This document shows, in pieces, positions 5,191 through 25,592 of a DNA stretch of 40,280 nt. A program made the position numbers and the translations under genes. Source of the stretch: an uncultured Anaerolineaceae bacterium (GTDB taxonomy: Bacteria > Chloroflexota > Dehalococcoidia > Tepidiformales > Tepidiformaceae); assembly GCA_964497285.1 (NCBI GenBank), contig CAZCDK010000001.1, forward strand, positions 9,472-49,751. Reading direction: 5' to 3'. Position 1 is the first letter of the stretch, and every line of letters begins with the position of its first letter. The notes beneath the pieces were generated by a model that was not told where the DNA came from, searched no databases, and worked only from the letters and a program-made list of their open reading frames with translations.

Positions 5191-7974
5191 ATGGTCCTTG
5201 AATCCGCTGCCAGTCTTCAAGTGAGCTCAGAAGAGCGGTACCGCGAGCGCTGGTCGTGGGACACCGTGAACTGGGCAACCCACTGCATCGACTGCTACCC
5301 CGGCAACTGCCAGATGCGCGTTTATCTCAAGGATGGTCACGTCTTGCGTGAAGAGTCCGCAGGCGTCTACCCCACTGTCCAGGAAGGCGTCCCCGACATG
5401 AACCCGATGGGATGCCAGAAGGGCGTGGGCTGGACGCAGATGCTCGACTCCCAGGAGCGCCTGCTCTACCCGCTCAAGCGAGACGGCGAGCGGGGCTCCG
5501 GGCGGTGGAAGCGGATCAGCTGGGACCAGGCCGCAACGGAGATCGCGGACGCCGTGATCGACGCTGTCCAAGAGCTCGGACCCGAATCAGTGATGGCCCC
5601 ATCGGGCTGCAACCTCGGCACCTGGGGAGCCACGGGACGAGCGCAGTACATGCGCATCATCGGCGGGCTTACAACCGACCTGAACGCGGAGATGAACGAC
5701 TTCAGCCCGGGCCACTACCTGACGTGGGGCACGTTCGACCCGGTTAGCAGCATCGATGATTGGTTCCACGCCGAGCTGACCTTCATCTGGTTCCAGAACC
5801 CGTTCTACACGCGCATTCCGCACATCCACTACGCGCTGGAGAGCCGCTATGCAGGCGGGGAGGTCTGCACCGTTGCGCCCGACGCCTCGCCATCATCGAT
5901 CCACTCCGATTACTACGTGCCGGTGAGGATCGGGAGCGACGCCGCGTTCGCGCTCGGCATGGCCCAGGTTGTCATCGAAGAGGGCCTGGTCAACGAGACC
6001 TTCGTCCGCGAGCAAACCGACCTGCCTCTGCTGGTGAACCCCGCCACAAAACGGTACCTCCGCCAGTCGGACCTTGATGAGGGCGGAAGTGAGGACCAGC
6101 TCTACGCATGGGACGCCATTTCCAACAAGCCAGTTCCGGCACCAAAAGGAACTCTCTTCTGGGGCGCGGCCGCGCCCGCGCTCGAAGGCGAGTGGACCGT
6201 GCAGACGAAGAGCGGGCCGGTGAGGCTGACGACCGTCCATGCGCTGATGCGTGAACGCCTGAAGGAGTACACGCCGGAGAACGCCTCCACCATTTGCGGC
6301 ATCCACCCGGACACCATCCGAACCCTCGCACGCAAGGTTGCGTCAAAGCGAACCAATATCCTGTGCTGTCTCAACAACGCCGGCAAGCACTATCACGGCG
6401 ACCTGATCGAGCGCTCGCAACTGCTCCTCCTTGCGCTGACAGGCAACTGGGGACGGCACGGCACAGGCGTGCGCGCCTGGCTCAGTGGCCTCATGGACGG
6501 CTGGTTTACACCGCTGGCGAAGACGAAGCGAGGGCCCCAGGAACTGAGCGCAATGCTCGACACCATGGAACAGATGGTCGGCATGATTCAAGGCCAGGAT
6601 CCGACCCTCACCCGGGCCCAACTGGCGATCATGCAGGCGAAGATGCCCGGCCAGGGGCAGGGCACCGGGTTCGTACCGCCCGTATTCTGGTGGTATCGCC
6701 ACGCAGGCTACAAGGACGCATGGCAACGTCGTGAATGGCACGACCCGAGCATGGTGCGCGAGTTCGACGACTACTTCCAGGAAGCCGTCGCCAAGGGGTG
6801 GTGGCAGGGTGTCGACCTGCCGCGAGAGAACCAGCCCACGCGCGTCGTGATCGAGTGCGGCGGGAACTTCGTCCGCCGGACTCGCGGCGGCGGCAAGATG
6901 TTGCTTCAGCACCTCTTTCCAGGGCTAAAGATGGTGGCCACGCTCGACGTGCGCATGAGCGGGACGGCGATGCTGTCGGACATCGTCCTGCCGATTGCCC
7001 ACCAGTACGAGAAGCTTGGCTTCGGCATTCCAAGCACGCACACGATGAACCTCACCTTCAGCGATAAGTCGGTGGAACCGCCCGGCGAGGCAGTCGACGA
7101 GTGGGAGGCGTTCCGGCGGCTGGCGGAAAAGCTCGAAGAACGCGCCCGCGCCCGGGGAGTGCAGGTCTACAGCAACGCCCTCGGCGGCCAGCACGACCTC
7201 CAGAAAGCCCACAGCACGTTCACCGCCAACGGCCTGTGGGTCGACACGGAGGCCATGTTCGATGAGATGATCCGCGACAGCGCCCTCATCGGAACGCTGC
7301 CCCCCGACGCAAGCCTGGAAGAGGTGCGCCGGAAGGGGTTCTTCCGCTTCCAGGGACTCGGCATCTCGGCGCGGGCACTCGCACAGGCGACCGACCCCCA
7401 ACCGGACGAGACATTCGTTCCGTTCCGCAACCACGTCGAGAAGGGCGAACCCTATCCAACCCTCTGCCGGCGCGCCCAGTTCCTCATCGAACACGAGTGG
7501 TTCATCGAGGCCGACGAGCATCTGCCCCGGCACAAGGACGCCCCCGCGATGGGCGGCAGCTACCCGTTCCTGCTTACAAGCGGCCACAACCGCTGGAGCA
7601 TCCATTCACTCAACACGGCCAATCACCTCATGCTGGATACCCACCGGGGCACCCCGCACCTTGTGATGATCAAGCTCGATGCAGACCCACTTGGGATCGT
7701 CGACAACGAGACGGTTCGCGTCCACAACGACCAGGGCGACTTCGAGGTGCCGGTCAAGATCTCGCCAACGGCACAGCCCGGCCAGGTGATTGTCTACAAC
7801 GGCTTCGACACCTACCAGTTCCCCAGGTGGGCGTCCGTCAACGACGCCGAACCGGGCATGATCAAGTGGTTGCACCTGGCCGGTGGCTACGGGCATTTGC
7901 GCTACTGGGCGACGGAATGGCAGCCGTGCGCAGTGATGCGGGGAACACGCGTGGGAATCACCAGGCGCCCCTGA
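5191..7974 (+). CDS. Molybdopterin oxidoreductase catalytic subunit, type II DMSO-reductase family (NarG/EbdA-like), paralogue alpha1
   Basis: ORF 5107..7974. ATG 5191 is preceded by GAAGGAG. The N-terminus YRERWSWD..THCIDCYPGNC..NPMGCQKG is a NarG-like FS0 cluster motif. MNDF provides the candidate Asp ligand for Mo. At 927 aa it is in the EbdA/SerA/DdhA size class. No twin-arginine signal. Confidence 0.9.
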   Translation: MVLESAASLQVSSEERYRERWSWDTVNWATHCIDCYPGNCQMRVYLKDGHVLREESAGVYPTVQEGVPDMNPMGCQKGVGWTQMLDSQERLLYPLKRDGERGSGRWKRISWDQAATEIADAVIDAVQELGPESVMAPSGCNLGTWGATGRAQYMRIIGGLTTDLNAEMNDFSPGHYLTWGTFDPVSSIDDWFHAELTFIWFQNPFYTRIPHIHYALESRYAGGEVCTVAPDASPSSIHSDYYVPVRIGSDAAFALGMAQVVIEEGLVNETFVREQTDLPLLVNPATKRYLRQSDLDEGGSEDQLYAWDAISNKPVPAPKGTLFWGAAAPALEGEWTVQTKSGPVRLTTVHALMRERLKEYTPENASTICGIHPDTIRTLARKVASKRTNILCCLNNAGKHYHGDLIERSQLLLLALTGNWGRHGTGVRAWLSGLMDGWFTPLAKTKRGPQELSAMLDTMEQMVGMIQGQDPTLTRAQLAIMQAKMPGQGQGTGFVPPVFWWYRHAGYKDAWQRREWHDPSMVREFDDYFQEAVAKGWWQGVDLPRENQPTRVVIECGGNFVRRTRGGGKMLLQHLFPGLKMVATLDVRMSGTAMLSDIVLPIAHQYEKLGFGIPSTHTMNLTFSDKSVEPPGEAVDEWEAFRRLAEKLEERARARGVQVYSNALGGQHDLQKAHSTFTANGLWVDTEAMFDEMIRDSALIGTLPPDASLEEVRRKGFFRFQGLGISARALAQATDPQPDETFVPFRNHVEKGEPYPTLCRRAQFLIEHEWFIEADEHLPRHKDAPAMGGSYPFLLTSGHNRWSIHSLNTANHLMLDTHRGTPHLVMIKLDADPLGIVDNETVRVHNDQGDFEVPVKISPTAQPGQVIVYNGFDTYQFPRWASVNDAEPGMIKWLHLAGGYGHLRYWATEWQPCAVMRGTRVGITRRP

Positions 7975-7999
7975 AAGGCGGCCGGCAAGAACCCTCGAT

Positions 8000-8032
8000 C
8001 GGCGGGGCGAAAGTGCCCCGCCGCGCTGCTTT
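8000..8032 (+). terminator. GC-rich hairpin after alpha1 (candidate intrinsic terminator)
   Basis: CGGCGGGGC (8000-8008), loop GAAAGT, GCCCCGCCG (8015-8023), followed by CGCTGCTTT. The U-tract is short. Confidence 0.5.
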
Positions 8033-8072
8033 GAAGGGGTCCTCCGACTCCAGATCGGGGGCCCGCCGTCGA

Positions 8073-8122: not shown

Positions 8123-10924
8123 ATGACTAGCCAAACCCCCATCGAACCCATCTACACGGGCTGGCAGGATCTCTACCGCCAAAAGTGGGACTGGGACGCC
8201 GTCTACTGGGGAACGCATTGCGTTGACTGCTACCCCGGCAACTGCCCGATGCGCGTCTACGTGAAGGACGGCATCGTCTGGCGCGAGGAACAGTCCGGGT
8301 CCTTCGACACGATCCAGCAGGGCGTGCCCGACTTCAACCCCATGGGCTGCCAGAAGGGCGCCTCCTGGAGCCAATCGCTCTACGGCCCCGATCGCGTCAT
8401 GTTCCCGCTGAAGCGCGCCGGCGAGCGCGGCGAAGGCAAGTGGAACCGCATCAGTTGGGATCAGGCTCTGAGCGAGATCGCAGACAAGCTCATCGACGCC
8501 ATCGAGGAACAGGGGCCCCACTCCACCATCCACGAAGGTACGCCGGGGATGGCCACCGCCGCTCCGACCGGCCGGTTCTTCTCGACCATTGGCGGCCTGG
8601 GCACAGACCTCAACGGGTCGATAAACGACTTCTCGATCGGCCTCTACGAGACTTTCGGGAAGTTTAGTCCGGTCTCGTCCGCCGATGACTGGTTCCATTC
8701 GGAAGTCGTGCTCATCTGGCACATGAACCCGGTCTACACCCGGATCCCCTTCTATCACTTCATCGCTGAAGCGCGTTACAACGGGGCCGAGGTCATCAAC
8801 ATCTCGCCCGACGTGAACCCGTCCCATCTCCACGCAGACATGCAGGTGCCAATTCGGGGCGCGTCGGACCAGGCGTTCGGACTCGCGATGGTTCAGGTGA
8901 TGTTCGAAGAGAACATCGCGAACTGGAAGTTCCTGAAGGAGCAGACCGACTTCGGGTACCTCGTGCGCACCGACACCCGCCGCTACCTCCGCCAGACGGA
9001 CGTCGAGGGCCAGGGCCGGGACGACCAGATGTACCAGTGGATTCCCGGCACCGGACTGAAGCTCGCCGACCGCGGCAGCGTCTTCCTCGGGGATGTGGAC
9101 ATCGCGCTGGAAGGCGTCTTCGACGTGAAGCTGGCCGACGGCTCGACCGTCCAGGTCACGCCCGTCTACTCGGTGCTGAAGAAGAAGCTCGACAGCGAGT
9201 ACACGCCCGAGAAACAGCAGGAGATCACCGGGGTCCACCCGGATGTCGTCCGCACAGTCGCCCGCAAGGTGGCAGCCAAGCGGACGAACATCATGCTTGG
9301 CTACAACGCCTGCAAGTTCTATCACGGCGACCTGATCGAGCGCGTACAGTGCCTCGTTCTCGCCGCCAGCGGGAATTGGGGCAAGCACGGGACCGGCATC
9401 CGCTGCTGGGCCGCCGGCATGCACGACGGCCTTTTCATCTCCTCCAACAAGCCCGGACCCGGCGCGGCCAACACGGAGATCATCCTCGCGGGCCGCGACG
9501 CTGCCGTGGCAGCAATGAAGGCAACCGATCCGACAATGACCACCGAGATCGCGGTGCGCGAGCTCGGTATGCTCGCCTCACGCTTCGAGATGGGTCCGGC
9601 CAACAGCCCCACGGGGTCGTCCACCATCCCGGCGATGATGTGGTACTTCCAGGGCGGCTATGACAAGCGCTGGAACACCCCCGGCTGGGGCGACGAGTCG
9701 CTCCCACGAAAGTTCGACGACTACTTCAACGAGGCCATCGAAAAGGGCTGGTGGCTCGGCTTGGACAAGCCGCGGCCGGAAAACCCCCCACGCGTGCTCA
9801 TTGAGTGCGGCGGAAACATGCTGCGGCGCACTCGCGGAGGCAAGGCGGCACTCCTGCCCACGCTTTGGCCCAAGCTCAGCGCGATCGTGACCATCGACTT
9901 CCGCATGAGCCAGACGGCGCTCTACGCGGACTATTTCCTCCCCGCGGCCCAGCACTATGAGAAGGTCTCGTTCCACATCCCTACGCCTCACGTGATGAAC
10001 CTCACGTTCTCCGACAAGGCGGCGCAGCCGGCAGGCGAAGCCAGGAACGAGTGGGAGATCTACTCCTCGCTGCTGGAGAAGCTCGCGGAACGGGCCCAGG
10101 CGCGCGGGCTCTCGGAATACACCGACAAGCGCGGCTACACCCGAAAATACGGCGAGTTGGCGTCCTACTACTCCATGAACGGGTACCTCCTCGACGAGGA
10201 CAAGATGGCCGACGAAGCCGTTCGTGACTCGGCGTTGGCGGGAACGCTGCCCATGGGCACGAACCTCAAGACCATGCGCGAGAAGGGCCACGTACGCTTC
10301 ATCGACTGGGGCCTCACGCCGATGGCGCTTGCCCAGGCTTCCCCGATTTCCGCGACCGAAACGCATGTTCCGTTCCGCGACAACACCGAGTCTGGGCATC
10401 CCTTCCCCACGTACGCGCGGCGCGCGCAGTTCTACATCGACCACGAATGGTTCCTGGAGGCAGGCGAAGAACTCCCCGTTTGGAAGCCGAACCCCAAGAT
10501 GGGCGGCGACTATCCCCTGGGTCTCACCTCCGGACACAATCGCTGGTCCATCCACGCCATGAACCAGAGCAACAACGTCATCCTCGGCACCCACCGCGGC
10601 GAACCCGACGTCTCGATCAATCCCGACGACGCGGCCGAGCGAGGCGTGAAGGACGGGGATCTCATCCGCGTCTTCAACGACGTGAGTTCCTTCAAGGTTC
10701 GGGCCAGGGTGGCCCCAAACGTGAAGCCGGGCCAGGTCATCTCCTACAACGGCTGGGCCGGCTTCCAGTACACGGACTGGTCGGGCGCGAACGAGATCGA
10801 GCCCGGAATGGTCAAGTGGATCGGGCTGGCCGGGGGCTATGGCCACCTGCGCCACTTGGGCACGGAGTGGCAGCCGGTTCCCAGCGATCGCTGGGTCCGC
10901 TGCGACTTCGAGAAGGTCAACTAG
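8123..10924 (+). CDS. Molybdopterin oxidoreductase catalytic subunit, type II DMSO-reductase family, paralogue alpha2
   Basis: 933-aa ORF. YRQKWDWD..THCVDCYPGNC..NPMGCQKG FS0 motif and INDF candidate Asp ligand. Collinear with alpha1 over its whole length. No Tat motif, and no Shine-Dalgarno sequence visible upstream. Confidence 0.9.
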   Translation: MTSQTPIEPIYTGWQDLYRQKWDWDAVYWGTHCVDCYPGNCPMRVYVKDGIVWREEQSGSFDTIQQGVPDFNPMGCQKGASWSQSLYGPDRVMFPLKRAGERGEGKWNRISWDQALSEIADKLIDAIEEQGPHSTIHEGTPGMATAAPTGRFFSTIGGLGTDLNGSINDFSIGLYETFGKFSPVSSADDWFHSEVVLIWHMNPVYTRIPFYHFIAEARYNGAEVINISPDVNPSHLHADMQVPIRGASDQAFGLAMVQVMFEENIANWKFLKEQTDFGYLVRTDTRRYLRQTDVEGQGRDDQMYQWIPGTGLKLADRGSVFLGDVDIALEGVFDVKLADGSTVQVTPVYSVLKKKLDSEYTPEKQQEITGVHPDVVRTVARKVAAKRTNIMLGYNACKFYHGDLIERVQCLVLAASGNWGKHGTGIRCWAAGMHDGLFISSNKPGPGAANTEIILAGRDAAVAAMKATDPTMTTEIAVRELGMLASRFEMGPANSPTGSSTIPAMMWYFQGGYDKRWNTPGWGDESLPRKFDDYFNEAIEKGWWLGLDKPRPENPPRVLIECGGNMLRRTRGGKAALLPTLWPKLSAIVTIDFRMSQTALYADYFLPAAQHYEKVSFHIPTPHVMNLTFSDKAAQPAGEARNEWEIYSSLLEKLAERAQARGLSEYTDKRGYTRKYGELASYYSMNGYLLDEDKMADEAVRDSALAGTLPMGTNLKTMREKGHVRFIDWGLTPMALAQASPISATETHVPFRDNTESGHPFPTYARRAQFYIDHEWFLEAGEELPVWKPNPKMGGDYPLGLTSGHNRWSIHAMNQSNNVILGTHRGEPDVSINPDDAAERGVKDGDLIRVFNDVSSFKVRARVAPNVKPGQVISYNGWAGFQYTDWSGANEIEPGMVKWIGLAGGYGHLRHLGTEWQPVPSDRWVRCDFEKVN

Positions 10925-10940: not shown

Positions 10941-11513
10941 ATGAAAGTCGCAAAGGTGAACGCAGGATCCGACCTCGCCGACCCGGCCGCGCAGGCCTGG
11001 AGCAGCGTGGCCGCGGAAGCGGTATCACTCGCTCCCGTGGCGCTTGCTGCTCAGCCGACGGAGTACATCCGCGAGGCCTGGGCCAGCCGCCCCTACGGCC
11101 AGACAGCCGAGGCGAAGGTGGCCGTCGCCTCCGACGGCAGCAAGCTCTATGTGCGCGTGGAGTGGGCCGACGACGCCAGGCCGAACACCGAATTCCAGGA
11201 CGCGGTCGGCGCCGTCCTCGGCGACGGCACCCTCGCCACCCTCGGAGACGCGAAGGCTCCACTCACGTTGTGGTATTGGGAAAACGGCCGCGGTGCCCTC
11301 AACCTCGTCGCCAAGGGACCGGGCGTGTTTGGCAAGGCCGACGCCGGAGCCGTCAGCGGGGCTGGTGCAATCAGCGACGGGAAGTGGGCCGCTGTCCTGA
11401 GCGGACCGGCCTCGGCCGCCAACGGCAAACTCGGAATCGCCGTGTGGAACGGCTCGAACGAAGAACGGGCGGGCCTCGCCGCCGTCAGCCGCGCCTGGCT
11501 GCCGCTCGAGTAG
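10941..11513 (+). CDS. EB_dh/DOMON-like gamma subunit homologue with no possible haem ligands (gamma1)
   Basis: ATG 10941 follows AGGAGGAAGAGGG. The 190-aa product aligns by eye with gamma2 (QPTEYIREAW / QPSAYVQKAW; LWYW / AWHW; GIAVWNGSNEERAGL / GIAVWSGAASERAGL). No signal peptide. Apart from the initiator Met it has no Met, His or Cys. Confidence 0.8.
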   Translation: MKVAKVNAGSDLADPAAQAWSSVAAEAVSLAPVALAAQPTEYIREAWASRPYGQTAEAKVAVASDGSKLYVRVEWADDARPNTEFQDAVGAVLGDGTLATLGDAKAPLTLWYWENGRGALNLVAKGPGVFGKADAGAVSGAGAISDGKWAAVLSGPASAANGKLGIAVWNGSNEERAGLAAVSRAWLPLE

Positions 11514-11531: not shown

Positions 11532-12566
11532 ATGACTGCAAACGGAACGCGCCAGATCGCCTGGGTCTTCGACCTCAACAAGTGCATCGGCTGCCAGACA
11601 TGTTCGGTGGCGTGCAAAGTCCTCTGGACCCGCGACGAGGGTGAGAAGCACGAGTGGTGGTGCTCAGTGAACACCCAGCCCGGCCTGGGCACTCCCAAGA
11701 ACTGGGAACAGATGGGCGGCGGTGTCGATCCGAAGTCGGGCAAGCCCGCGGCGGGCCACCAGCCCACCCGCGGTGAGTTCGGCGGCGGCTTCGACTTCAA
11801 CTACTACGAGGTCTTCTACGGCGGCACCGCCGGCAAGGCTCACCTTGAACCGCAGGCCCCACGCGAAGACCGCTGGGCCATGAACTGGGACGAGGACCAG
11901 GGCGCCGGCGAGTGGCCCAACTCGTACTTCTTCTACCTGCCTCGCCTGTGCAACCACTGCACCAATCCCACCTGCATGGAGGCTTGCCCCACGGGCGCCC
12001 TCAGCAAGCGGGACGACGGCCTCGTCTTGCGCGATGAGGACGTCTGCATGGGCGATCGCTTCTGCATGGAAGCCTGCCCCTACAAGAAAATCTACTTCAA
12101 CTACGAGCGCCACGTTTCCCAGCACTGCATCGGCTGCTTCCCTCGCATCGAAGCGGGCGTGGCCCCGGCTTGCGTGCGCCAGTGCCCGGGTCGCGCCGTC
12201 TTCGTCGGCTACATCGACGAGGAGGGCACCCCCGTCCACGACCTCGTGAAGAAGTGGAAGATCGCCCTTCCGCTGCATGCAGAGGCCGGCACCGGACCGA
12301 ACGTCTTTTACGTTCCCCCGCTCTCGCCCTACCGGTTGAACGACGACTTCAGTATCGACTACCAGACGCCGCGCATCCCGCGCGAGTACCTGGAATCGCT
12401 CTTCGGCCCGGAGGTCAATGGGGCCCTTTCCACGCTCAGCGGCGAGATGCAGAAGGTCCGCGAGGGCGGATCATCGGACATGCTCAAGACACTCATCGCC
12501 TACAAGTGGAAGGAATTGCTCGGACCCTTCACCGTCGATCCCGCCGACATCGTCCAAACGGTCTAG
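11532..12566 (+). CDS. Iron-sulfur beta subunit (NarH/EbdB-like, four-cluster ferredoxin), beta1
   Basis: Four cluster motifs: CIGCQTCSVAC, CNHCTNPTCMEACP, CMGDRFCMEACP (spacing of a 3Fe-4S group) and CIGCFPRIEAGVAPACVRQCP. The WW..N..PG insertion is typical of type II beta subunits. RBS AAGGAG. Confidence 0.9.
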   Translation: MTANGTRQIAWVFDLNKCIGCQTCSVACKVLWTRDEGEKHEWWCSVNTQPGLGTPKNWEQMGGGVDPKSGKPAAGHQPTRGEFGGGFDFNYYEVFYGGTAGKAHLEPQAPREDRWAMNWDEDQGAGEWPNSYFFYLPRLCNHCTNPTCMEACPTGALSKRDDGLVLRDEDVCMGDRFCMEACPYKKIYFNYERHVSQHCIGCFPRIEAGVAPACVRQCPGRAVFVGYIDEEGTPVHDLVKKWKIALPLHAEAGTGPNVFYVPPLSPYRLNDDFSIDYQTPRIPREYLESLFGPEVNGALSTLSGEMQKVREGGSSDMLKTLIAYKWKELLGPFTVDPADIVQTV

Positions 12567-12581: not shown

Positions 12582-13268
12582 ATGTTCGTCTACTCACTCG
12601 CCGGTCTCCAGATCGACGGCGAAGCCAGCCAGGAGATGGAGCTTCCGGACAACGAAACCACGGCTCGCCTGGGTGTCTACCAGGTTCTGGCCCGTCTGAT
12701 GGCGTGTCCCGACGCCGACTCCCATGGGGCGGCCTTGGGCGGCGAGTGGCCCGGGCGGTTGGCCCACGATGCCAAGCTGCTTCCGTTTTCCTTCGATTTC
12801 GAGACCGCCTCGATCGATGCGGCAGTCTCCGAATCCAATTTCCAGGCCGAATACCTGCGGCTGTTCGAAGTTGGATCCGGCGAAGGCGGGCCCGGAGCGC
12901 CGCTGTTCGGCGGAGTGTATGGCAGCGGCGACCGGATGAAGAAGCTCGAAGAGGTGGTTCGCTTCTACGAGTACTTCGGACTGAAGGCATCGGCCGAGGA
13001 TCCGCGGCCGGCGGACCACCTCGCCACTGAGATGGAATTCATGAAGTTCTTGACGCTCAAGGAGGCGACCTCCGCGTCGCCCCGGCTGCAGGCCTCGTTC
13101 CGGCGGGCGCAGCATGACTTCTTGGAGCGCCAGCTGACTACGTGGCTACCCGAGCTTTCGAACCGGACCAGGGCGCAGAACCCAATGCCGTTCTGGCAGT
13201 GGGCCGTGGACCGGGCGAACGCCTTTGCCGGGGCCGACTTGGCCTACGTTCAGAGCGTGATGGGGTAG
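12582..13268 (+). CDS. TorD/NarJ-family maturation chaperone (delta1)
   Basis: 228 aa. YQVLARL...EYLRLFEVG....P..GGVY...RFYEYFGL....PADHLATEMEFMKFL matches the nitrate-reductase delta/TorD family pattern. RBS AGGAGG. Confidence 0.85.
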   Translation: MFVYSLAGLQIDGEASQEMELPDNETTARLGVYQVLARLMACPDADSHGAALGGEWPGRLAHDAKLLPFSFDFETASIDAAVSESNFQAEYLRLFEVGSGEGGPGAPLFGGVYGSGDRMKKLEEVVRFYEYFGLKASAEDPRPADHLATEMEFMKFLTLKEATSASPRLQASFRRAQHDFLERQLTTWLPELSNRTRAQNPMPFWQWAVDRANAFAGADLAYVQSVMG

Positions 13269-18075: not shown

Positions 18076-18108
18076 ACGAGACTCTCGGGGCGGATGCCAG
18101 GAGACTGA

Positions 18109-18636
18109 ATGGACACGCTGCTTGCGTGGGCCCACGCGCTCGCGTGGGCTGTCTACGTCGGCGGATCAATAACCATGGAGTGGGTGCTGCGCTACGCCCA
18201 GAGGACGATGCCACCGTCGCAGGTGTCGATCGTCTGCAAGCGTTCGGGCAGCCGCTACCGCTGGCTCGGGCTCGGAACCCTGGGCGTGATCGGTCTCACC
18301 GGCGCCCTCATGGTGGCCACCCTCGACAGGGACGGGCTCCTCCTCCGGCCGGGCCATCCGGAGCTGGCGCTTTCCGATGCCTACGGGCAGACGGTCGCAG
18401 CGCTTTCGGTCCTCTGGGTGGCACTCGTCACGGCTTCGGCATCGATGGCGTTCTGGCTTCACCCGGCGCAAGCCCGCCGCTCCAGCCCCGAGATGTCCCA
18501 GGACGAGATCCAGGCGGAGCGCCAGCGCGTTGGCCGTGCCATTGCGCGCATGGATCGCGTGCTGAAGTTCGAGCTCCTCACCTCCGTGGTCTCAATTGCC
18601 CTCGGCGCCTCACTTGGTGCCGGCGGGTTGCTTTGA
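18109..18636 (+). CDS. 4-TM membrane protein, paralogue 2 (unknown family)
   Basis: ATG 18109 follows AGGAGA. 175 aa with the same four-helix layout and motifs as 17515..18075 (WAHALAWAVYVGGSITMEWVL..MPPSQ; YGQTV..LW; GASL near the C-terminus). Confidence 0.75.
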   Translation: MDTLLAWAHALAWAVYVGGSITMEWVLRYAQRTMPPSQVSIVCKRSGSRYRWLGLGTLGVIGLTGALMVATLDRDGLLLRPGHPELALSDAYGQTVAALSVLWVALVTASASMAFWLHPAQARRSSPEMSQDEIQAERQRVGRAIARMDRVLKFELLTSVVSIALGASLGAGGLL

Positions 18637-18652
18637 AGGTGGTATAGGTCCC

Positions 18653-19819
18653 ATGCCGAAGACGATCGCGATCACCCCCTCCTGGTACTGGCCAGCCGAC
18701 ATCCCGCGGGTGGCCGGCGTGCCCCCTTTCTCGATCTACGAGCTCTGCGTCTCTCGCGGCGTTCGCGACCGCGCTGGAGAGCCGGCTCTCATCGCCGGGA
18801 AGTCACGCCTCTCCACCAACGAGCTGAAGGACGAAGTCGATCGGCTGGCGTCGGGCCTGGCGGCACGTGCCGGGCAAGGCCGGAGGGCGGTGCTTGCGGG
18901 CGACCCTACCCTCGACACCGTACTCCTGCTGCTGGGCGCCCTCGCGGCCGGCTTGCATGTGCGCATCGCACCGCCGGGATCGAACCTTGCCGCGGTCGCC
19001 CAGCAGTTCGGCACGAGCCTCGTCCTGGAAGGCGCCGGCGCAGTCGAACCGGCGGCAGACGTCCCGCCCCACGTCCCCACCTCTGACGAACTCACCGCAC
19101 CGGCGGTCACGATAGATGGTCGCGACGGACCGGTGAGCCACTCACACCGGTCGTTGCTTGCCGCTGCGCTGAGCATGACCACCTTCTTCGATGCCGACCC
19201 ACGCCGCCCCTGGATGGCGTCGCTGCCCCTGAGTCGTTGGGAGGGATTGGCATCAGTGATCATCCCGCTCTTCCTCGGCGCGCCGCTCGTCCTGTCTCCG
19301 CAGGGTTCCGACGCGGACGCAATCGTGGAGACGATGGTGCGCGAGGGCGTCGGCTACGCGTTCACGGAACTGGACGGAGCAGCAACCCTCACCCGCGACG
19401 CGAAGAAGGCCGTGAAGGACGCGAGGCGCATCCTCAACGCCTTTCTCCTCTCGACTGCGGGTATGTTCGACCCGGACTCGCGCCGCCGCGTCAGCAGAGC
19501 CTTCGAATGCCCGGCCCTGACGGTCTTCGGTCTCCCGGAAACCGGCCCGATCTTCGCCGCGCATCAATCCTGGTACATCGACGAGTCGATCGGTATTCCG
19601 CTAAGCAACGCCCACGTCGTGCCCGCCGACCCGCGTTCTGGCCAGCCAATCCAGGCCCTGTGGGAGCTCGTGGAGTCGGCCGAGGTGACCGTTTGGACGC
19701 CATCGCTGATGGTGGGATACGAGGGAGCCGAACACCCGGAGCGCTTCATCGACGGTCGCTACCGGACCGGCATGATCGCCTCCTCCGACGCCAACGGCAT
19801 GATCTACCTGCTCGGATAG
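18653..19819 (+). CDS. Adenylate-forming (ANL) superfamily homologue, N-terminal domain only, with degenerate motifs
   Basis: ORF 18596..19819; ATG 18653. Collinear with acyl-CoA synthetase N-domains. The P-loop reads TIDGRDGPVSHSHRSL instead of TSGTTGxPKGVxxSHRNL. A5-like motif FGLPETG. The A7 motif reads YRTGM instead of YRTGD. The protein ends at DANGMIYLLG, exactly at the hinge before the C-terminal domain. Confidence 0.75.
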   Translation: MPKTIAITPSWYWPADIPRVAGVPPFSIYELCVSRGVRDRAGEPALIAGKSRLSTNELKDEVDRLASGLAARAGQGRRAVLAGDPTLDTVLLLLGALAAGLHVRIAPPGSNLAAVAQQFGTSLVLEGAGAVEPAADVPPHVPTSDELTAPAVTIDGRDGPVSHSHRSLLAAALSMTTFFDADPRRPWMASLPLSRWEGLASVIIPLFLGAPLVLSPQGSDADAIVETMVREGVGYAFTELDGAATLTRDAKKAVKDARRILNAFLLSTAGMFDPDSRRRVSRAFECPALTVFGLPETGPIFAAHQSWYIDESIGIPLSNAHVVPADPRSGQPIQALWELVESAEVTVWTPSLMVGYEGAEHPERFIDGRYRTGMIASSDANGMIYLLG

Positions 19820-19977
19820 CCGGCGGCAGCCTGACCCGCGCCCGGCAGTGCCCGGCCCATGGAGCATCCAGGGCGAGTCACGGGGTAGGCCCTTGGGGGG
19901 CGAGGTCCGCCCGCCCGCGAACTCACTCATAACCTGCCCCAATCGTCCTACTCACTACGCCTATAGATGTCCAGTCT

Positions 19978-20004
19978 TGCCAGATGGGAACGGACCTGCC
20001 AGAT
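19978..20004 (+). repeat. Direct repeat TGCCAGAT x2, 19 bp apart
   Basis: Copies at 19978-19985 and 19997-20004, in low-GC DNA upstream of the small wHTH gene. Possibly an operator or promoter element. Confidence 0.3.
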
Positions 20005-20088
20005 TCTCACCATGGCCCGCGGAGGCCCGGCGTGGGGTCGGGCCGTTGCGCCGCCGCGGCCAGTCCCGTCAGGGTAAGGAGCCACAAG

Positions 20089-20343
20089 ATGTCCGATGCC
20101 GAACCTGAAGAGAACACCGGCAAGGAATCGAGCCAGTCCCGGCATGTTCACGCGTTTCTGAAGACGGCCATCCTTTTCGGCGGCCTCGCGGCTGGCACCG
20201 CCATCAGTGTTGCCGCGCTGGTCAGACGCCACCGGGTGTCCGCCAACGCCGCGCGAGACGCCCTGGTTAGACTCGAGGACGAAGGCCTCGTTGATCGAGA
20301 AGCGCCGGACACAGTCGTCGTGTCCGACCGCCTCGACCACTGA
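20089..20343 (+). CDS. Small stand-alone winged-HTH protein (GntR-like DNA-binding domain only)
   Basis: ATG 20089 follows TAAGGAG. The 84-aa product has ISVAALVRRHRVSANAARDALVRLEDEGLV, which resembles the GntR N-terminal wHTH. No effector domain. Confidence 0.55.
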   Translation: MSDAEPEENTGKESSQSRHVHAFLKTAILFGGLAAGTAISVAALVRRHRVSANAARDALVRLEDEGLVDREAPDTVVVSDRLDH

Positions 20344-20371: not shown

Positions 20372-21034
20372 TCAGGCAGCCTCTGTGAGGAAAGCCGTCT
20401 CCCGGACGCAGTACTCGTTCAGCAGGCGGAGAACCGCCCGGTAGAACGCGGGCGGATTCTTGCCCTCGACACGCCGCACCGCCTCTGCCGACCAGCGAAG
20501 GAGGTGTCGCGCCAGGACATCGCCCTCGGCGGTCCGGACAGGCGCGGGGTCCTCCCCGTGGCTGAGGTTCGCCTCGCGGAAGGCGAGGAAATGAAGGAAC
20601 TCCAGCACAGTCGGAATGGCGTCCGGGAGGTCACGCGCTTCGCCCGACACGGTAAGACCGAAGTGCCGGTAGAAGCGCAGGAGTTCCTCCATTGAGTCGC
20701 GGCGCGAGGAGGCAAAGACCCCCGCATAGAGCGGCATCGCGGGTCCCCCACCGGGCAGGTCAAAGAGCCGGATGTAGTCGCTCTGGACCTCCAGGTACTC
20801 CATCTCGGGTTCGACGAGCCCCGCGAAGAGCTCCGCCGGCAGGCAGTATGGCAGTACCGCAGCGATGCTCTCTGCCGCGCTCCGGATCTGTCCGCCGCGG
20901 CAGGCTTCAACCAGCTGGTCGGTTGGAAACGAGAGCAATTCGCTGAGGAGCCCGTAGAACTCGCTCCGGGCCCGCGCGGTTTCGTTCACACGTTTCAGCC
21001 TACCGTACCGGCTGCCGCTGGAGCGTGGTCGCAT
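20372..21034 (-). CDS. TorD/NarJ-family maturation chaperone (delta2)
   Basis: SEFYGLLSELL...DYIRLFDLPGGGPAMPLYAGVF...RFYRHFGL...LPDAIPTVLEFLHFL matches delta1 and the TorD/NarJ pattern. The start is uncertain: ATG 21034 overlaps beta2 by 35 nt; GTG 20989 is an alternative. Confidence 0.85.
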   Translation of the reverse strand: MRPRSSGSRYGRLKRVNETARARSEFYGLLSELLSFPTDQLVEACRGGQIRSAAESIAAVLPYCLPAELFAGLVEPEMEYLEVQSDYIRLFDLPGGGPAMPLYAGVFASSRRDSMEELLRFYRHFGLTVSGEARDLPDAIPTVLEFLHFLAFREANLSHGEDPAPVRTAEGDVLARHLLRWSAEAVRRVEGKNPPAFYRAVLRLLNEYCVRETAFLTEAA

Positions 21035-22055
21035 CCGTATCGAACGGCCCCAGAAGGTCGGTCCAGTCGCGCGAGATCAGGATGTCCATCAGCTCGGACT
21101 TCCCGCCCCTGGCGACTTTCTCGCGTTCTGCTTCGATCGTGGCCAGGGCCTTATCGACCCCGGGCCCGAAGAGCTCACGAAGGTACTCGCTCGGACTGCG
21201 CGGATTCTCGTCGTCGAATTCCCCGTTCGCCTTGAACCCGAGAGGCGAAGAGGGCGGCACGTAGAAGACGTTCGGCTGAACACCGAAGTCCGCGTGAAGC
21301 GGGAGCGCCACTTTCCACTTGTTCACAAGCTTGTGGATGTGCCCGTCCTCATTGTCGAGGTAGTCGATGTGGCGCACGCGGCCGGGGCACTGGCGAATGC
21401 ACGCGGGCGCGACGCCCTGCTCGAGCCTGGGGAAGCAGGACATGCACTTCTGGGCGATGTTCCGGCCCTCGTTGAAGTAGATGCGCTTGTACGGGCAGGC
21501 CTCAGCACAGAAGCGGTAGCCGTGGCAGCGCTCTTCATCAATGAGGACAATCCCGTCTTCTTCCCTCTTGTAGACCGATTCGCGCGGGCAGGCCTCGACG
21601 CAGGCTGGCTCTGAGCAATTCATGCAGATCTGCTGCAGGTAGAAGTAGTACGAGTTGGGGTAGACACCGCCACCCATGTCCTCGTCCCAGTTGGGGCCCC
21701 ACGCTGGCGCAGCGCCGTCGTGTTCTCGCGGGCGAAGCGGGATCGCCTCCTCGCGGCCGCTGCCAAACACGCCCTCGTAGTCGAAGTCCCAGGCTTCGCC
21801 CCAGAGCCGCTTCCCCGGGAATGACCCCGCGCGGGGCTCGCCCTTGGCGTCGTATCCGCCGCCATAGGTGAACACGTCTCGGGGCGTACCGCGCCCGGGG
21901 AACGTGTTCACCGCATTCCACCACTGGTGCTCCATGCCGTTGTGGGACGTCCAGGCCGTCTTGCAGGCCAGCGAGCAGGTGTGGCAGCCCAGGCACTTGT
22001 TCAGATCGAACACCATCGCCACCTGGCGTTGGGAAGGCGCCGCTTTCTTTGCCAT
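21000..22055 (-). CDS. Iron-sulfur beta subunit (NarH/EbdB-like), beta2
   Basis: Four cluster motifs: CLGCHTCSLAC, CMNCSEPACVEACP, CHGYRFCAEACP and CMSCFPRLEQGVAPACIRQCP. RBS GGGAGGAGGA. Confidence 0.9.
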   Translation of the reverse strand: MAKKAAPSQRQVAMVFDLNKCLGCHTCSLACKTAWTSHNGMEHQWWNAVNTFPGRGTPRDVFTYGGGYDAKGEPRAGSFPGKRLWGEAWDFDYEGVFGSGREEAIPLRPREHDGAAPAWGPNWDEDMGGGVYPNSYYFYLQQICMNCSEPACVEACPRESVYKREEDGIVLIDEERCHGYRFCAEACPYKRIYFNEGRNIAQKCMSCFPRLEQGVAPACIRQCPGRVRHIDYLDNEDGHIHKLVNKWKVALPLHADFGVQPNVFYVPPSSPLGFKANGEFDDENPRSPSEYLRELFGPGVDKALATIEAEREKVARGGKSELMDILISRDWTDLLGPFDTDATTLQRQPVR

Positions 22056-22077
22056 CGTAGTCCTCCTCCCGCCTGTC

Positions 22078-22698
22078 TCAGCCGACCTTGAGGTCGTGCC
22101 AGGTTGGTGTGTGCGACTTCAGTCCTGCCCGTTCGCTGGCGGCGCCGCTCCAGACAGCGATTCCGATCTTGGCCGGGTTGCCCGGGCCCGCCAAGACGAC
22201 GTGCCACGAACCGTTTTGCCATTCGCCGGTCGCCTGGAGCGCGTGCTTCTTCTCACGAGTGACCGTGCCCAGCCCTTGCGCCGTGGCGACGTTCGGGCCG
22301 GCAGCGCCCGCTCGCCAATGCCAGGCGGTGACCGGCTTGCCGGCGCTGCCCATGGTGCCGATCTCGGCGTCGTTCCCGTTCGCAGGAAACAGAACCGCAC
22401 ACGCGTCGGCATACACGTCGTTGTCGTTGATCGTGTGACGCGGGTCTGGGGCCGCCCATTGGAGGCGAACCACGAGCTCGTCCCCGGCGGCGAGGGCCTT
22501 CACCGCCACCGACTCGATGCCGCCGCGCTGCCGCCCGGCCCACGCCTTCTGCACATAGGCCGAGGGCTGCGCCTCCAGGGGCGTCGGCTGCAGTGGCAAC
22601 GATACCTCGATTGCGTCATCCCATGCAGGGGCGCGAGGCGACAGGAGATCCCGGACCACACCTGACGCCTTCTTTGCCGTCACGTTCTGTGTAGTCAT
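22078..22698 (-). CDS. EB_dh/DOMON-like haem-b-type gamma subunit (gamma2), no signal peptide
   Basis: 206 aa. Its ATG overlaps the alpha4 stop codon (ATGA). It retains a Met (GTMGS) and a Lys (AGLKS) at positions expected for the Met/Lys haem ligands of EbdC-type gamma subunits. The N-terminus is hydrophilic. Confidence 0.85.
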   Translation of the reverse strand: MTTQNVTAKKASGVVRDLLSPRAPAWDDAIEVSLPLQPTPLEAQPSAYVQKAWAGRQRGGIESVAVKALAAGDELVVRLQWAAPDPRHTINDNDVYADACAVLFPANGNDAEIGTMGSAGKPVTAWHWRAGAAGPNVATAQGLGTVTREKKHALQATGEWQNGSWHVVLAGPGNPAKIGIAVWSGAASERAGLKSHTPTWHDLKVG

Positions 22699-25592
22699 CG
22701 CCGCACCTCGACCTTCTCAATCTCGATTGCGACTTCCTTGGGGATGTGGTTCATGGTGTATGAGGCCATGCGGTAGTGAAGCTGGCCATAGTTGCCAACC
22801 ATGTTCGTCGGCTTGATCGGGCTGGCCGCGAGGTCGTTCTGCGTCGCCCAGTTCTTGAACTGGTACCCCTCCCAGGCGTGATAGACGATCGCCGAACCCG
22901 GCTGCACCGACGCCGCCACCTTGGCGAGGAGTTCGACCTTGCCCACATCGTTCCGCAGCCGAATGTAGTCGTTGTCCTTGATGCCGCGGGCGGCGGCGTC
23001 TTGCTCCGAGATGTAGGCGACCGGCTCACCGCGCTGGAGGCGCAGGAGCTGGGTGTTGGCTCGCCAGATGGAGTGCATGCTCCAGCGCGTGTGACCGCCG
23101 GTCATGCGGATCGGGTACTTGCCGCCGGATTGCACCGGTTCCTTGTGCACGAGCATCTCTTCGCCCGCTTCCAGGAACCAGGGGTGGTCGATGTAGAACT
23201 GCTGCCGCCCGGTGAGCGTCGGCCACGGGTTCTTCATGTTCACGAACCAGCCGCACTGGTTCGTGGGCTCGTCTTCGCTGTAATCGTTGTAGACGGAATT
23301 GAAATGCACGGCGAGTGCCGACGGCTGGATCTTCTTGATCTTCACCATGCCCTTCTCGGCCGCCTTGCCCCACGCGCCCTCGCCGAGGCCGCTGTTCCGG
23401 GTGATCGCCGAGTACTGCAGGATGAAGTCAAGTGCCTTCTCCTCGCCCTCCTCACCGATGGGATAGTGCCCGTTTGCGGTGATGTCATCGAAGATTGTCT
23501 GTAGGCTGTGCGCGCCACCGCGGGAGTCCGAGTAGGTCTCGATCCCGCGAGCCTTTGCGCGCTCCTGCAGCTTCTGCGCCAAGAGGAGGGCAATGTCCCA
23601 TTCGTGCTTCGAGTCGTAGAGCGGCGGCACGGCCCGGTCGCCCACAATCACGTAAGGGATGTAGGAACTCGTGTACTTGATGCCCGGCTTCTCGTAGTAG
23701 CCACAGGCCGGGAGGATGTAGTCGGAGTACAGGCCGGAGGTCGACATCCGGAAGTCGCAGGTAACGATGGTGTCCAGGCTCGCCCACAGGCTGTCGCGAA
23801 TGACTCCTGGGTTCGGCCAGCGGCGCAGGGGGTTGGGCCCCGAGAAGTAGAGGAACTTGGGCCGCTTTGGCGGCCGGGGCGACACCGGCTGCCAGTTGCT
23901 TGCCAGCGACTCCTCGATGTAGTCCTTCACCGGCCGGGTCAGCGAGGGGTCGTTATATTCCTGCTTGTGGGCGATAGCACGCCATTTCTCATCATGGGCG
24001 TAGAGCCACGGGATGAGCGGCGACGCGGCGCCCATTCGCCCCATTTGGAACGTCATCTTCGAAAACTCTTGCATTGCGACGCGCTCGACAGGAAGCTCGC
24101 CGGTATCCTCGGTCTGGAGAGCGACCGAAGGCCCAGCACCAAGCCTGCCTCCCATGAGCGAGATCATTGGCGGCGGCCACCACGTCGATACCTTTATTCC
24201 GGACCCGGGCTTGCCACCCGAGTTCCCCGTCAGCGCGCACAGGTAGGCCATCCCACGCTGGAACAGGTCCGAGTGGAAATGCTTGCACGAGCCCCAGGAG
24301 GAGTAGATCATCGCCGACTTCGCCGCCGCGAATTCACGCGCGACCCGGGCGATGTTGTTCTGGTGTACGCCCGTGATCTCGGTGACGCGGTCGAGCGTGT
24401 ATTCGTTGACCCGCTCGCGCATGAGCTCAAAGACGGGCCGGACCTTCACGCGCTTCCCGTCCTTGAGGCGCACCGTATGGACGCCCTCCAGTTCGGGGTC
24501 CACGTCTTCATCGAGCTTGATGGTGGCGCGGGTCGAGCCCCACGTGCCGGGCGCCTCGACCTTCCGGCCGGTGTTCGCGTTCCAGAAGTAGAAGACGCCG
24601 TCGTTCCCGTCCTCCTCGACGTCGGACTGGCGGAGAAACTGCTTCGTGTCGTCGCGTACCAGGAACGGCAGATCGGTCTGTTCCTTCACGTAGTCCGCCT
24701 TGTACAGCTTCTCGTTGATGATCACGTTGATCATGCCGAGGGCGAGGGCGGCATCGGTCGCGTACCGTGGGTTCAGCCAGCGGTCAGCGTGCATCGTCGA
24801 GGCGCTGAAGTCGGGCGAAATAGTGACGATCTTCGCCCCCCGGTAGCGCGCCTCATAGAGGAAATGTGCCTCGGGAACCCTCGTGTAGGAGGGGTTCCCG
24901 ATCCAGATGAGGGCATAGTCGGTGAGGAACCAGTCGTCGGCGGTGCCCTCGCTCATGTAGAGGCCCCAGGCCTGGATCAGCCCCACCGGCAAGTCGCCAA
25001 CGCCAGCGTAGGAGTCGATTGTGCTGGCCCCCAGGCCGTTGCTCAAGAGATGGCTCTCCATCGGCGAGCCGATACCGAAGTCGATGTTTGTCGTGCCGTT
25101 GTCGTAGATGATGCACTCGGGGCCATCCTTGTGGGTGGCCGTGTCGATCAGCTTGTCCGCGATCTCGCTCAGGGCATCGTCCCACGAGAGCCGCTGCCAC
25201 TTCCCCGACCCACGTTCGCCCACGCGCTTCATGGGATACTTGATGCGCGTCGGGTCGTACATCTGCACGGCGTAGACAGACCCGGAAGGGCAGCCGCGCG
25301 GATTGAAGTCGGGCACGTCCTCGAACGCCTTCTCGTAGGTAGCATTTGCTTCTTCGCGCCAGACGATGCCGTCCTTGACGTACGCATCCAGCGAGCATGC
25401 CGAGATGCAGTTCACGCGCGTGTGCGTGACCTTGACCACCTTGTCCCAGGTCCACTCGTCCCGGTACACGTCCTCCCAACCCCGGTACTCGTAGGGCCGG
25501 GAAAGGATCTCGGCGAGATGGGCGCCCGCATCAGCCGGCTTCAACCGGCGCAGCGAAGGAGAAACAGGCGAAGCAGCAGTCATAGTGGCCAC
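22695..25592 (-). CDS. Molybdopterin oxidoreductase catalytic subunit, type II DMSO-reductase family, divergent paralogue alpha4
   Basis: 965 aa. GWEDVYRDEWTWDKVVKVTHTRVNCISAC..NPRGCPSG is very similar to the NarG N-terminus. GDL provides the candidate Asp ligand. RBS AAGGTGG. The N-terminal SLRRLKP is not followed by a hydrophobic h-region. Confidence 0.9.
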   Translation of the reverse strand: MATMTAASPVSPSLRRLKPADAGAHLAEILSRPYEYRGWEDVYRDEWTWDKVVKVTHTRVNCISACSLDAYVKDGIVWREEANATYEKAFEDVPDFNPRGCPSGSVYAVQMYDPTRIKYPMKRVGERGSGKWQRLSWDDALSEIADKLIDTATHKDGPECIIYDNGTTNIDFGIGSPMESHLLSNGLGASTIDSYAGVGDLPVGLIQAWGLYMSEGTADDWFLTDYALIWIGNPSYTRVPEAHFLYEARYRGAKIVTISPDFSASTMHADRWLNPRYATDAALALGMINVIINEKLYKADYVKEQTDLPFLVRDDTKQFLRQSDVEEDGNDGVFYFWNANTGRKVEAPGTWGSTRATIKLDEDVDPELEGVHTVRLKDGKRVKVRPVFELMRERVNEYTLDRVTEITGVHQNNIARVAREFAAAKSAMIYSSWGSCKHFHSDLFQRGMAYLCALTGNSGGKPGSGIKVSTWWPPPMISLMGGRLGAGPSVALQTEDTGELPVERVAMQEFSKMTFQMGRMGAASPLIPWLYAHDEKWRAIAHKQEYNDPSLTRPVKDYIEESLASNWQPVSPRPPKRPKFLYFSGPNPLRRWPNPGVIRDSLWASLDTIVTCDFRMSTSGLYSDYILPACGYYEKPGIKYTSSYIPYVIVGDRAVPPLYDSKHEWDIALLLAQKLQERAKARGIETYSDSRGGAHSLQTIFDDITANGHYPIGEEGEEKALDFILQYSAITRNSGLGEGAWGKAAEKGMVKIKKIQPSALAVHFNSVYNDYSEDEPTNQCGWFVNMKNPWPTLTGRQQFYIDHPWFLEAGEEMLVHKEPVQSGGKYPIRMTGGHTRWSMHSIWRANTQLLRLQRGEPVAYISEQDAAARGIKDNDYIRLRNDVGKVELLAKVAASVQPGSAIVYHAWEGYQFKNWATQNDLAASPIKPTNMVGNYGQLHYRMASYTMNHIPKEVAIEIEKVEVRR

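Follow-up and report, generated by a model that had tools for sequence, protein, structure and literature searches.

A cross-phylum gene cassette for predicted cytoplasmic type II molybdenum enzymes, found in a Chloroflexota genome with three catalytic subunits to one electron-transfer set

We analysed a 40,280-nucleotide stretch of DNA from an uncultured Anaerolineaceae bacterium (phylum Chloroflexota; contig CAZCDK010000001.1, positions 9,472 to 49,751), hereafter called the window, in which two convergent operons encode type II molybdenum enzymes related to ethylbenzene dehydrogenase (EBDH). The window has a G+C content of 64-67%, and relatives with more than 90% identity to its proteins are labelled 'Chloroflexi bacterium CFX7', 'Thermoflexaceae bacterium' or 'Dehalococcoidia bacterium'; Tepidiformaceae is a further label among the relatives. 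Sterolibacterium was rejected as the source, since identical copies of window proteins, alpha1 among them, and their nearest relatives come from Chloroflexi assemblies. A tblastn comparison of each subunit with the window located four alpha loci and two each for beta, gamma and delta, with no further copies. This confirmed the count and the coordinates of an earlier, sequence-only reading of the same DNA, small start-codon corrections aside; its gene order and the convergent layout of the two operons were correct as well. The alphas match Pfam Molybdopterin and Molydop_binding together with NCBIfam TIGR03479, the betas Fer4_11 and TIGR03478, the gammas EB_dh and TIGR03477, and the deltas Nitrate_red_del and TIGR03482. 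As judged from sequence, the plus-strand locus, which holds three of the alphas, is part of an uncharacterised cassette that occurs across phyla and is unlike every studied EBDH-type enzyme in its predicted location, its gamma heme ligands and its partners.

The cassette is encoded in the order alpha2-gamma1-beta1-delta1-alpha3-X519-M1-M2-ANL, with alpha1 upstream, behind a Crp-type regulator gene. Alpha1 (5191-7974, 927 aa, TIGR03479 824 bits) is an EbdA-like catalytic subunit of the Mo-bisPGD type (molybdenum held by two pyranopterin guanine dinucleotides) without beta, gamma or delta genes of its own. After 148 bp it is followed by alpha2 (8123-10924), the first gene of the cassette and likewise EbdA-like (best PDB match EbdA, 2ivf, 722 bits). 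Gamma1 (10941-11513), an EB_dh-fold subunit recognised by Pfam and TIGR03477, lies 16 bp further downstream; its start is the ATG at 10941 and not the overlapping 10839. The four-cluster iron-sulfur subunit beta1 (11532-12566, TIGR03478 440 bits) and the NarJ/TorD-type maturation chaperone delta1 (12582-13268, PF02613 and TIGR03482) follow at distances of 18 and 15 bp, and 48 bp behind delta1 lies alpha3 (13317-16061, TIGR03479 846 bits), the third EbdA-like catalytic subunit. The sequence-only reading had let the operon end here; instead, it extends past alpha3 through four tightly spaced genes to 19819. X519 (16058-17515), which encodes an uncharacterised protein of 485 aa, is joined to alpha3 by an ATGA overlap of stop and start, and M1 (17515-18075) overlaps X519 in turn. 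M2 (18109-18636) lies 33 bp behind M1, and a gene for an ANL-like protein (18653-19819) 16 bp behind M2. All these genes are on the plus strand. A scan of the operon for sigma-70 promoters and terminators yielded no promoter-like site and fewer terminator-like sites than expected by chance, and an Rfam scan revealed neither a molybdenum cofactor riboswitch nor any other.

A scan of 185,579 species genomes, seeded with alpha2 patterns only, returned 54 loci. According to blastp maps, 22 of the 54, from Chloroflexi as well as Gamma- and Alphaproteobacteria, contain the arrangement alpha2-(gamma1)-beta1-delta1-alpha3. X519-M1-M2-ANL is found downstream wherever the contig goes on. In addition, cassette genes turned up in Acidimicrobiia and further Actinomycetota when X519 homologues were looked up. 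A metagenome scan run independently with X519 as the seed gave 48 loci with an alpha3-type gene directly upstream wherever there was room, except in locus L079. The intergenic distances, projected across genomes, are operon-like. In four lineages (Chloroflexota, Acidimicrobiia/Actinomycetota, Gamma- and Alphaproteobacteria) alpha2 orthologues always adjoin gamma1-beta1-delta1, and the ratio of two alphas (alpha2 and alpha3) to one beta1 is conserved. In the literature covered, outside of which many subscription papers fell, we found no account of this cluster in Chloroflexi, in metagenome-assembled genomes (MAGs) or as a cytoplasmic EBDH-like enzyme.

The arrangement varies in instructive ways. 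In L058 (Microtrichaceae) and L106, the cassette is split into two units that lie side by side, alpha3-X519-M1-M2-ANL and alpha2-gamma-beta-delta. In loci of the proteobacterial type, a DUF3237-beta'-delta' of its own stands ahead of the alpha1-type gene. Alpha3 was never found with its own gamma-beta-delta set; alpha1 has its own set in Proteobacteria, not in Chloroflexi, where it lies directly upstream of alpha2 without a beta of its own in about 15 species genomes. Since alpha1-type genes carry their own beta and delta in Proteobacteria, sharing by alpha1 would be a derived state in Chloroflexi. In this second proteobacterial set, DUF3237-beta'-delta'-alpha1', which lies downstream of the ANL gene (L083, L084, L095, L096 and L104), the DUF3237 gene (PF11578, E = 5e-38) stands in for gamma.

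Further alpha2-like genes stand without any partner. Eight alpha2-like loci with full 10-kb flanks contain no beta, gamma or delta, and called genes confirmed this orphan status in two of the eight. One of the two lies between gyrA and leuA-type genes. The other (L061 6160-12820, Chloroflexi CFX7) is located 58 bp behind genes for the alpha and beta subunits of an electron transfer flavoprotein (ETF) and a gene resembling old yellow enzyme and 2,4-dienoyl-CoA reductase, a hint that ETF may be the partner with which this orphan alpha exchanges electrons in the cytoplasm. Several genomes hold at least three alpha2-like genes. Two DUF3237 genes were observed 2.4 kb from an orphan alpha of Thermoflexaceae H3_CFX4 (L060 15257-16163).

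All four window alphas look catalytically competent. The motif YRxxWxWD, the ligands of the iron-sulfur cluster FS0 (His82, Cys86, Cys92 and Cys127 in EbdA numbering), the molybdenum ligand Asp223 and Lys450 are present in 4/4 window alphas and in 88/88 alphas of related loci. The first three of these features had been named in the sequence-only reading, and the alignment to EbdA bore them out. On the EbdA equivalog NF042978, the alphas reach 553-771 bits and fall below the cut-off of 2000; by this measure they are not ethylbenzene dehydrogenases proper. EbdA is the best PDB match of alpha1-3, which score 706-771 bits with the EbdA model and only 199-251 bits with NarG. Alpha1, alpha2 and alpha3 share 46-48% identity with each other, 39-40% with EbdA (alpha1 39%) and 31-35% with PcrA, while alpha4 is 34-38% identical to every other compared sequence. 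For tree and alignment we used EbdA (PDB 2ivf) and PcrA (4ydd) as references, with sequences taken from PDB alignments; S25dA, CmdA, SerA, DdhA, ClrA and NxrA were left out, and the PDB has no structure of S25DH. The resulting neighbour-joining tree shows three separate orthogroups, those of alpha1, of alpha2 (with many extra paralogues) and of alpha3, which are jointly sister to EbdA; alpha4 falls outside. On this tree, alpha1-3 are three old orthogroups and not recent isoenzymes of the kind known from steroid C25 dehydrogenases (S25DH1-4).

Database searches with alpha2 and alpha4 returned thousands of relatives. The best 120 of each are solely metagenome or MAG proteins, from Chloroflexi, Acidimicrobiia, Acidobacteria and marine Gamma- and Alphaproteobacteria. 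No functionally studied protein is among these best 120, and their names are generic or automatic only: some close relatives bear the IMG label 'steroid C-25 hydroxylase' alpha or beta subunit, and the label 'dimethylsulfide dehydrogenase subunit alpha' is attached to one relative from NCBI.

We found no signal for twin-arginine translocation (Tat): an RRxFLK motif and a hydrophobic region are absent from all window alphas and their orthologues. The start Met lies 8-25 residues ahead of YRxxWxWD and closely follows in-frame stops; this holds in the window and, without exception, in the orthologues of alpha1, alpha2 and alpha3, those of diderm Proteobacteria included. EbdA has about 58 residues ahead of this motif. 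The N-terminus of the alpha4 family is conserved ('LRRLAPxDAxxRLxxLLSRPYEYR') and resembles a vestigial twin-arginine remnant without a hydrophobic region. Because the alphas lack a Tat signal, a cytoplasmic location is predicted for the enzymes. By comparison, S25DH and steroid C26 dehydrogenase (S26DH) have been assigned to the periplasm from their Tat sequences (PMC7411048), and S25dA, CmdA and EbdA are given as periplasmic in a recent survey (PMC10100899).

Gamma1 very probably carries no heme, because both conserved axial ligands of heme b are lost and no obvious substitute is present. In the alignment to EbdC, Met108 is replaced by Leu and Lys201 by Ala, and the window protein is devoid of His, Cys and internal Met. 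The loss is shared by 25 gamma1 orthologues from several lineages, with Ala or Gly at the Lys position in 25/25 and Leu at the Met position in 22/25; two actinobacterial gamma1-type proteins likewise lack the Lys. Among 120 full-length gamma representatives obtained by scanning 1.84 billion proteins, the nearest to gamma1, about 20 in number, are without the Lys, versus 85 more distant ones that retain both Met and Lys. Gamma2 of the window keeps EbdC Met108 and Lys201, as do the gammas of alpha4-type operons in other phyla. A missing secretory (Sec) signal on gamma was considered as a further difference from EBDH and rejected, since EbdC (2ivf_C) itself starts with MKAKRV and has no signal peptide. 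The iron-sulfur subunit appears complete: the Cys groups of beta1 are located at residues 18-28, 140-152, 172-182 and 199-218, and equivalent groups are found in beta2 (FS1-FS4).

The genes behind alpha3 encode proteins of other families. X519 has no Pfam match above threshold (Nitroreductase only, E = 0.025). Its roughly 170 homologues (55-94% identity) are all annotated as 'hypothetical' or 'nitroreductase', and they occur almost only directly behind alpha3-type genes. From an AlphaFold (AF2) model built with 33 homologues (pLDDT 79, pTM 0.85) and a Foldseek comparison, X519 is predicted to be a divergent, enlarged nitroreductase-type flavoprotein, that is, to have the fold of flavin mononucleotide (FMN) oxidoreductases. 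M1 (PF05425, E = 8e-9) and M2 are paralogous membrane proteins, CopD-like or DUF4149-like and 34% identical, with four helices in the hydropathy profile. Helix 1 contains an invariant His in each of them, and the motif A.Y.GGA..ME..L..AQ...PP.Q is common to the two. HemJ, a heme-b protein, is a member of their Pfam clan, and M1/M2 could form a membrane anchor that binds heme or a metal. The ANL-like protein comprises the AMP-binding N-domain only (partial PF00501 match). In most of 41 orthologues it stops at the ANL hinge 'SDANGMIYLLG'; across them its P-loop position is variable and the SGTTGxPKG phosphate loop absent. It is probably not a normal CoA ligase or adenylating enzyme.

Two actinobacterial loci have distinctive neighbours. 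In L058 (233-7162), MobB and heme-biosynthesis genes (ferrochelatase, HemN-like, CtaA and a HemY-like amine oxidase) abut alpha3-X519-M1-M2-ANL. In L059 (Actinomycetota), the cassette is flanked by SCP2 (851-1303) and three genes of 535-567 aa for flavin adenine dinucleotide (FAD) amine-oxidase/DAO-like proteins (14961-20342). The latter are candidate side-chain desaturases; compare the flavin Delta24-desaturase (PMC11061730).

The minus-strand operon is self-contained. Alpha4 (22695-25592), gamma2 (22078-22698; both heme ligands present in the alignment to EbdC, 2ivf_C), beta2 (21000-22055; TIGR03478 457 bits, Cys groups intact, 51% identity to beta1) and the chaperone delta2 (20372-21034; PF02613, TIGR03482) stand in a 1:1:1:1 ratio. 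Alpha4 belongs to a separate, uncharacterised type II clade, and its best PDB matches are PcrA (568 bits) and then EbdA (527 bits). Its start is more likely the ATG at 25583 (962 aa) than the GTG at 25592; the 86-93% identical relatives P0174 and P0175 have the same length. Operons of this type also stand alone, unlinked to the other cassette, as alpha-gamma-beta-delta in Microtrichaceae and as alpha-gamma-beta, without delta, in a Gammaproteobacterium. The sequence-only reading had four alphas share two sets. Its counts hold, but alpha4 would stand outside any sharing: since it has its own gamma2-beta2-delta2, the true imbalance is that of alpha1, alpha2 and alpha3 versus one gamma1-beta1-delta1 set (3:1).

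Divergent from alpha4, on the plus strand, lie catabolic genes (26062-31261) for an acyl-CoA dehydrogenase, a nitroreductase-family protein, an SCP-x/lipid-transfer-type thiolase and the CoA-transferase subunits A and B. They are syntenic with alpha4 in other loci too (for example L074 and L078). Pfam and NCBIfam confirmed the flanking enzymes named in the sequence-only reading: beside acyl-CoA dehydrogenases, the thiolase is of the SCP-x type, the CoA-transferase has two subunits and the mutase is a methylmalonyl-CoA-mutase-type protein. The large subunit of the latter is encoded at 35771-37444 (TIGR00641, 725 bits), and no B12-binding subunit was recognisable beside it, the next open reading frames (37445-38089 and 37879-38307) having no Pfam match. 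At the other end of the window, a Crp/Fnr-family regulator (2665-3573, plus strand; Pfam cNMP_binding and HTH_Crp_2) precedes an MFS transporter (3760-5025, plus strand; Pfam MFS_1 and MFS_3). Most loci from Chloroflexi have such a regulator upstream of alpha1 or alpha2, and MFS genes flank the cassette in proteobacterial loci too. A search of the window for Crp/Fnr boxes gave matches at chance level. Between the divergent genes for alpha4 and the acyl-CoA dehydrogenase, the intergenic region contains a perfect palindrome, ATGATCTGAATCAT, at 25884-25897. The window contains no EcKL/APH-type kinase. In L055 such a kinase (15288-16376, 362 aa) adjoins the Microtrichaceae alpha4-type operon, together with acyl-CoA dehydrogenase and aldehyde dehydrogenase genes. 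In Sterolibacterium, the kinase for 25-hydroxysteroids is a phosphotransferase of 40 kDa that has relatives in actinobacteria (PMC8449060).

How can three catalytic subunits function with one set? The sequence-only reading had pointed to the S25DH isoenzymes of Sterolibacterium denitrificans, and this precedent is real: the organism has eight alphas, of which alpha1-4 are active with beta3gamma3 or beta4gamma4 and SdhD (PMC6016249, PMC6153880). That is, some alphas use a common beta-gamma pair and one delta chaperone (PMC6016249, PMC6153880), and sharing of one set by several alphas is in itself not new. By analogy, alpha2 and alpha3 would assemble by turns on the single beta1-gamma1 module, aided by delta1, and alpha1 and the orphan alphas would probably use beta1-gamma1 likewise in this lineage. 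The resulting enzymes would have different substrate pockets within one common pathway. Two different molybdenum hydroxylases, S25DH and then S26DH, act in one side-chain pathway of Sterolibacterium (PMC7411048, PMC11061730). If gamma1 is heme-free, the built-in electron wire of the cassette would end at the iron-sulfur clusters of beta1, from which electrons may exit via X519 and/or the His-bearing M1/M2 toward the quinone pool. The reactions would most likely be water-dependent hydroxylations of alkyl or isoprenoid side chains, and their products would enter the co-encoded acyl-CoA dehydrogenases, SCP-x-type thiolase and CoA-transferase. Taken as a whole, this explanation, with alphas alternating on beta1-gamma1, electrons leaving through X519 and/or M1/M2, and alkyl or isoprenoid hydroxylation, has in our view somewhat less than an even chance of being right. 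The wider reading, in which the cassette represents an unrecognised multi-phylum class of cytoplasmic C-H hydroxylases with a heme-less gamma, at least two alphas per iron-sulfur module and membrane wiring by X519 and M1/M2, is tentative and on balance rather unlikely to hold in full.

Several points weigh against this explanation. Although the type II family is the best NCBIfam match for every subunit, all scores lie under the curated cut-offs: 824-916 bits for the alphas (cut-off 984.75), 440 and 457 for the betas (480.7), 79 and 111 for the gammas (169.85) and 120 and 134 for the deltas (152.3). His192 of EbdA is absent from all alphas. We infer the label 'hydroxylase' from the proximity to EbdA and from gene context, with a tree whose characterised references are EbdA and PcrA. 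Likewise, binding of any alpha to beta1 is inferred from gene content. The top Foldseek matches of X519 in the PDB are all nitroreductase-fold FMN proteins, but these matches are weak (E of about 1e-3, TM-score of about 0.5-0.6 on the target), and heme binding by M1/M2 is a guess. Electron flow could equally run in the opposite direction, with a nitroreductase-fold flavoprotein feeding NAD(P)H electrons into a reductase.

The claim that three alphas share one set stands only in part: the 3:1 count is correct and sharing is plausible given the S25DH precedent, but alpha1 has its own beta and delta in Proteobacteria and alpha3 is separable. Since alpha3 is tied to X519 and encoded apart from gamma-beta-delta in L058, L106 and L107, an alpha3-specific partner would fit at least as well. 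The strongest of the rival explanations, unlikely as we consider it, does without sharing between alpha2 and alpha3: alpha2-gamma1-beta1, with delta1, would be one enzyme, and alpha3 with X519 another, in which X519 would replace beta-gamma as electron partner, docked on M1/M2 and with the ANL-like protein as accessory. The adjacency of alpha3 and X519 is the most invariant feature of the cassette, with stop and start overlapping or nearly abutting, and X519 is better conserved (55-94% identity) than gamma1 or delta1. Alpha3-X519-M1-M2-ANL forms a separate unit in L058 and L106, and in L107 and L099 alpha3-X519 has no gamma-beta-delta upstream within reach. Even in L058, however, the alpha2-gamma-beta-delta unit is only some 3 kb away, and in most genomes alpha3 lies 26-65 bp behind delta1 in the same operon. 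Alpha3 also retains its FS0 ligands like the other alphas. To our knowledge, every characterised NarG/EbdA-type alpha hands its FS0 electrons to a NarH/EbdB-type beta, and we know of no pairing of such an alpha with a flavoprotein.

The imbalance might also be apparent only, with alpha1 and the orphans served by beta, gamma and delta genes elsewhere, beyond the 40-kb window; we hold this to be improbable. As alpha1-type genes in Proteobacteria come with a beta and a delta of their own (DUF3237-beta'-delta' ahead of the gene), the Chloroflexi genome could hold further beta genes outside the window, and other beta genes would escape a genome scan with alpha2-like patterns only. In S. denitrificans, alpha1 is likewise encoded apart from the beta3gamma3 that it uses (PMC6016249). 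Yet alpha1 directly precedes alpha2, with no own beta, throughout the Chloroflexi genomes mentioned above, the orphan alphas have no beta within 10 kb, and the 2:1 ratio of alpha2 plus alpha3 per set in four lineages would be unaffected even if such partners existed. Very improbable, by our estimate, is that the enzymes are not hydroxylases at all, but reductases or dehydrogenases (Nar/Nxr/Pcr/Ser/Ddh-like) that act in the cytoplasm on small inorganic or S-/N-oxide substrates and receive NAD(P)H electrons from X519. NAD(P)H use is typical of nitroreductase-fold proteins, alpha4 scores slightly higher against PcrA than against EbdA, and one relative bears the dimethylsulfide dehydrogenase label. 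However, alpha1-3 are far nearer to EbdA than to NarG. As a hydroxylase-like trait, alpha1-4 all keep Lys450 of EbdA, where PcrA has His, and the YDWYGD of PcrA around the molybdenum-ligand Asp reads DSYAGVGD in alpha4. No nitrate or nitrite transporters and no NarI were found; the adjoining genes consistently encode acyl-CoA dehydrogenases, thiolases, CoA-transferases, SCP2 and aldehyde dehydrogenase.

EBDH-type enzymes that hydroxylate unactivated carbon without oxygen are known from few cultured denitrifying Betaproteobacteria, plus one candidate from a sulfate reducer, and the studied enzymes are periplasmic and contain heme. Our analysis suggests a widespread cytoplasmic version without gamma heme ligands, with its own accessory proteins and exchangeable catalytic subunits. 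If it is a hydroxylase system, more organisms and habitats could be credited with the anoxic breakdown of sterol-, hopanoid- or isoprenoid-type lipids, and no substrate would have to be shuttled across the membrane, a need noted for Sterolibacterium. Should the wider class reading hold, lipid-like side chains would be hydroxylated in abundant uncultured heterotrophs (wastewater/anammox Chloroflexota, marine Gamma- and Alphaproteobacteria, Acidimicrobiia). As hydroxylases, cytoplasmic enzymes might in addition be easier to express for regioselective hydroxylations, for example to 25-hydroxyvitamin D3. The cassette also gives a first functional context to three uncharacterised families, those of X519, M1/M2 and the truncated ANL protein.

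Among known systems, S25DH1-4 and S26DH1-3 of S. denitrificans are alike in being EBDH-like type II molybdenum enzymes with many alpha paralogues per genome, followed by beta-oxidation genes (PMC6016249, PMC7411048, PMC11061730). Unlike the window alphas, which have no Tat signal, they carry Tat signals and have been assigned to the periplasm; each enzyme has about one heme b and passes electrons to cytochrome c, whereas gamma1 lacks heme ligands. The alphas that share partners in S25DH1-4 are 72-82% identical, versus 46-48% in separate orthogroups for alpha1-3. Partners such as X519, M1/M2 and the ANL-like protein were not seen described for Sterolibacterium (PMC6016249, PMC6153880, PMC7411048, PMC11061730), and the host range differs, comprising Chloroflexota, Actinomycetota and marine Proteobacteria. 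EbdABCD of Aromatoleum aromaticum (PDB 2ivf) includes the best solved relative of alpha1-3. Asp223, Lys450, FS0, four beta clusters, an EB_dh-fold gamma without its own signal peptide and a delta chaperone are common to both. However, the Tat signal region of EbdA (about 50 residues) and its His192 are absent here, the heme of EbdC is bound via Met108 and Lys201, which gamma1 has lost, and EbdABCD has one alpha per set in the order alpha-beta-gamma-delta.

NarGHJI is a cytoplasmic type II enzyme, whose alpha has a vestigial twin-arginine N-terminus only, bound by the NarJ chaperone. The alpha4 remnant LRRLAPxDA resembles this N-terminus, and a path of electrons from the FS4 cluster of beta to a membrane subunit would be a further likeness. 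In contrast to NarGHJI, there is no NarI-type di-heme subunit here, M1/M2 being CopD-like; the alphas score low against NarG (199-322 bits), and the context is catabolic rather than respiratory. PcrAB (PDB 4ydd), finally, provides the best solved relative of alpha4 (38% identity), with the same Asp as molybdenum ligand. PcrA is periplasmic and has His in place of the Lys450 of alpha4 and EbdA; its YDWYGD is not conserved in alpha4, and its partners are others.

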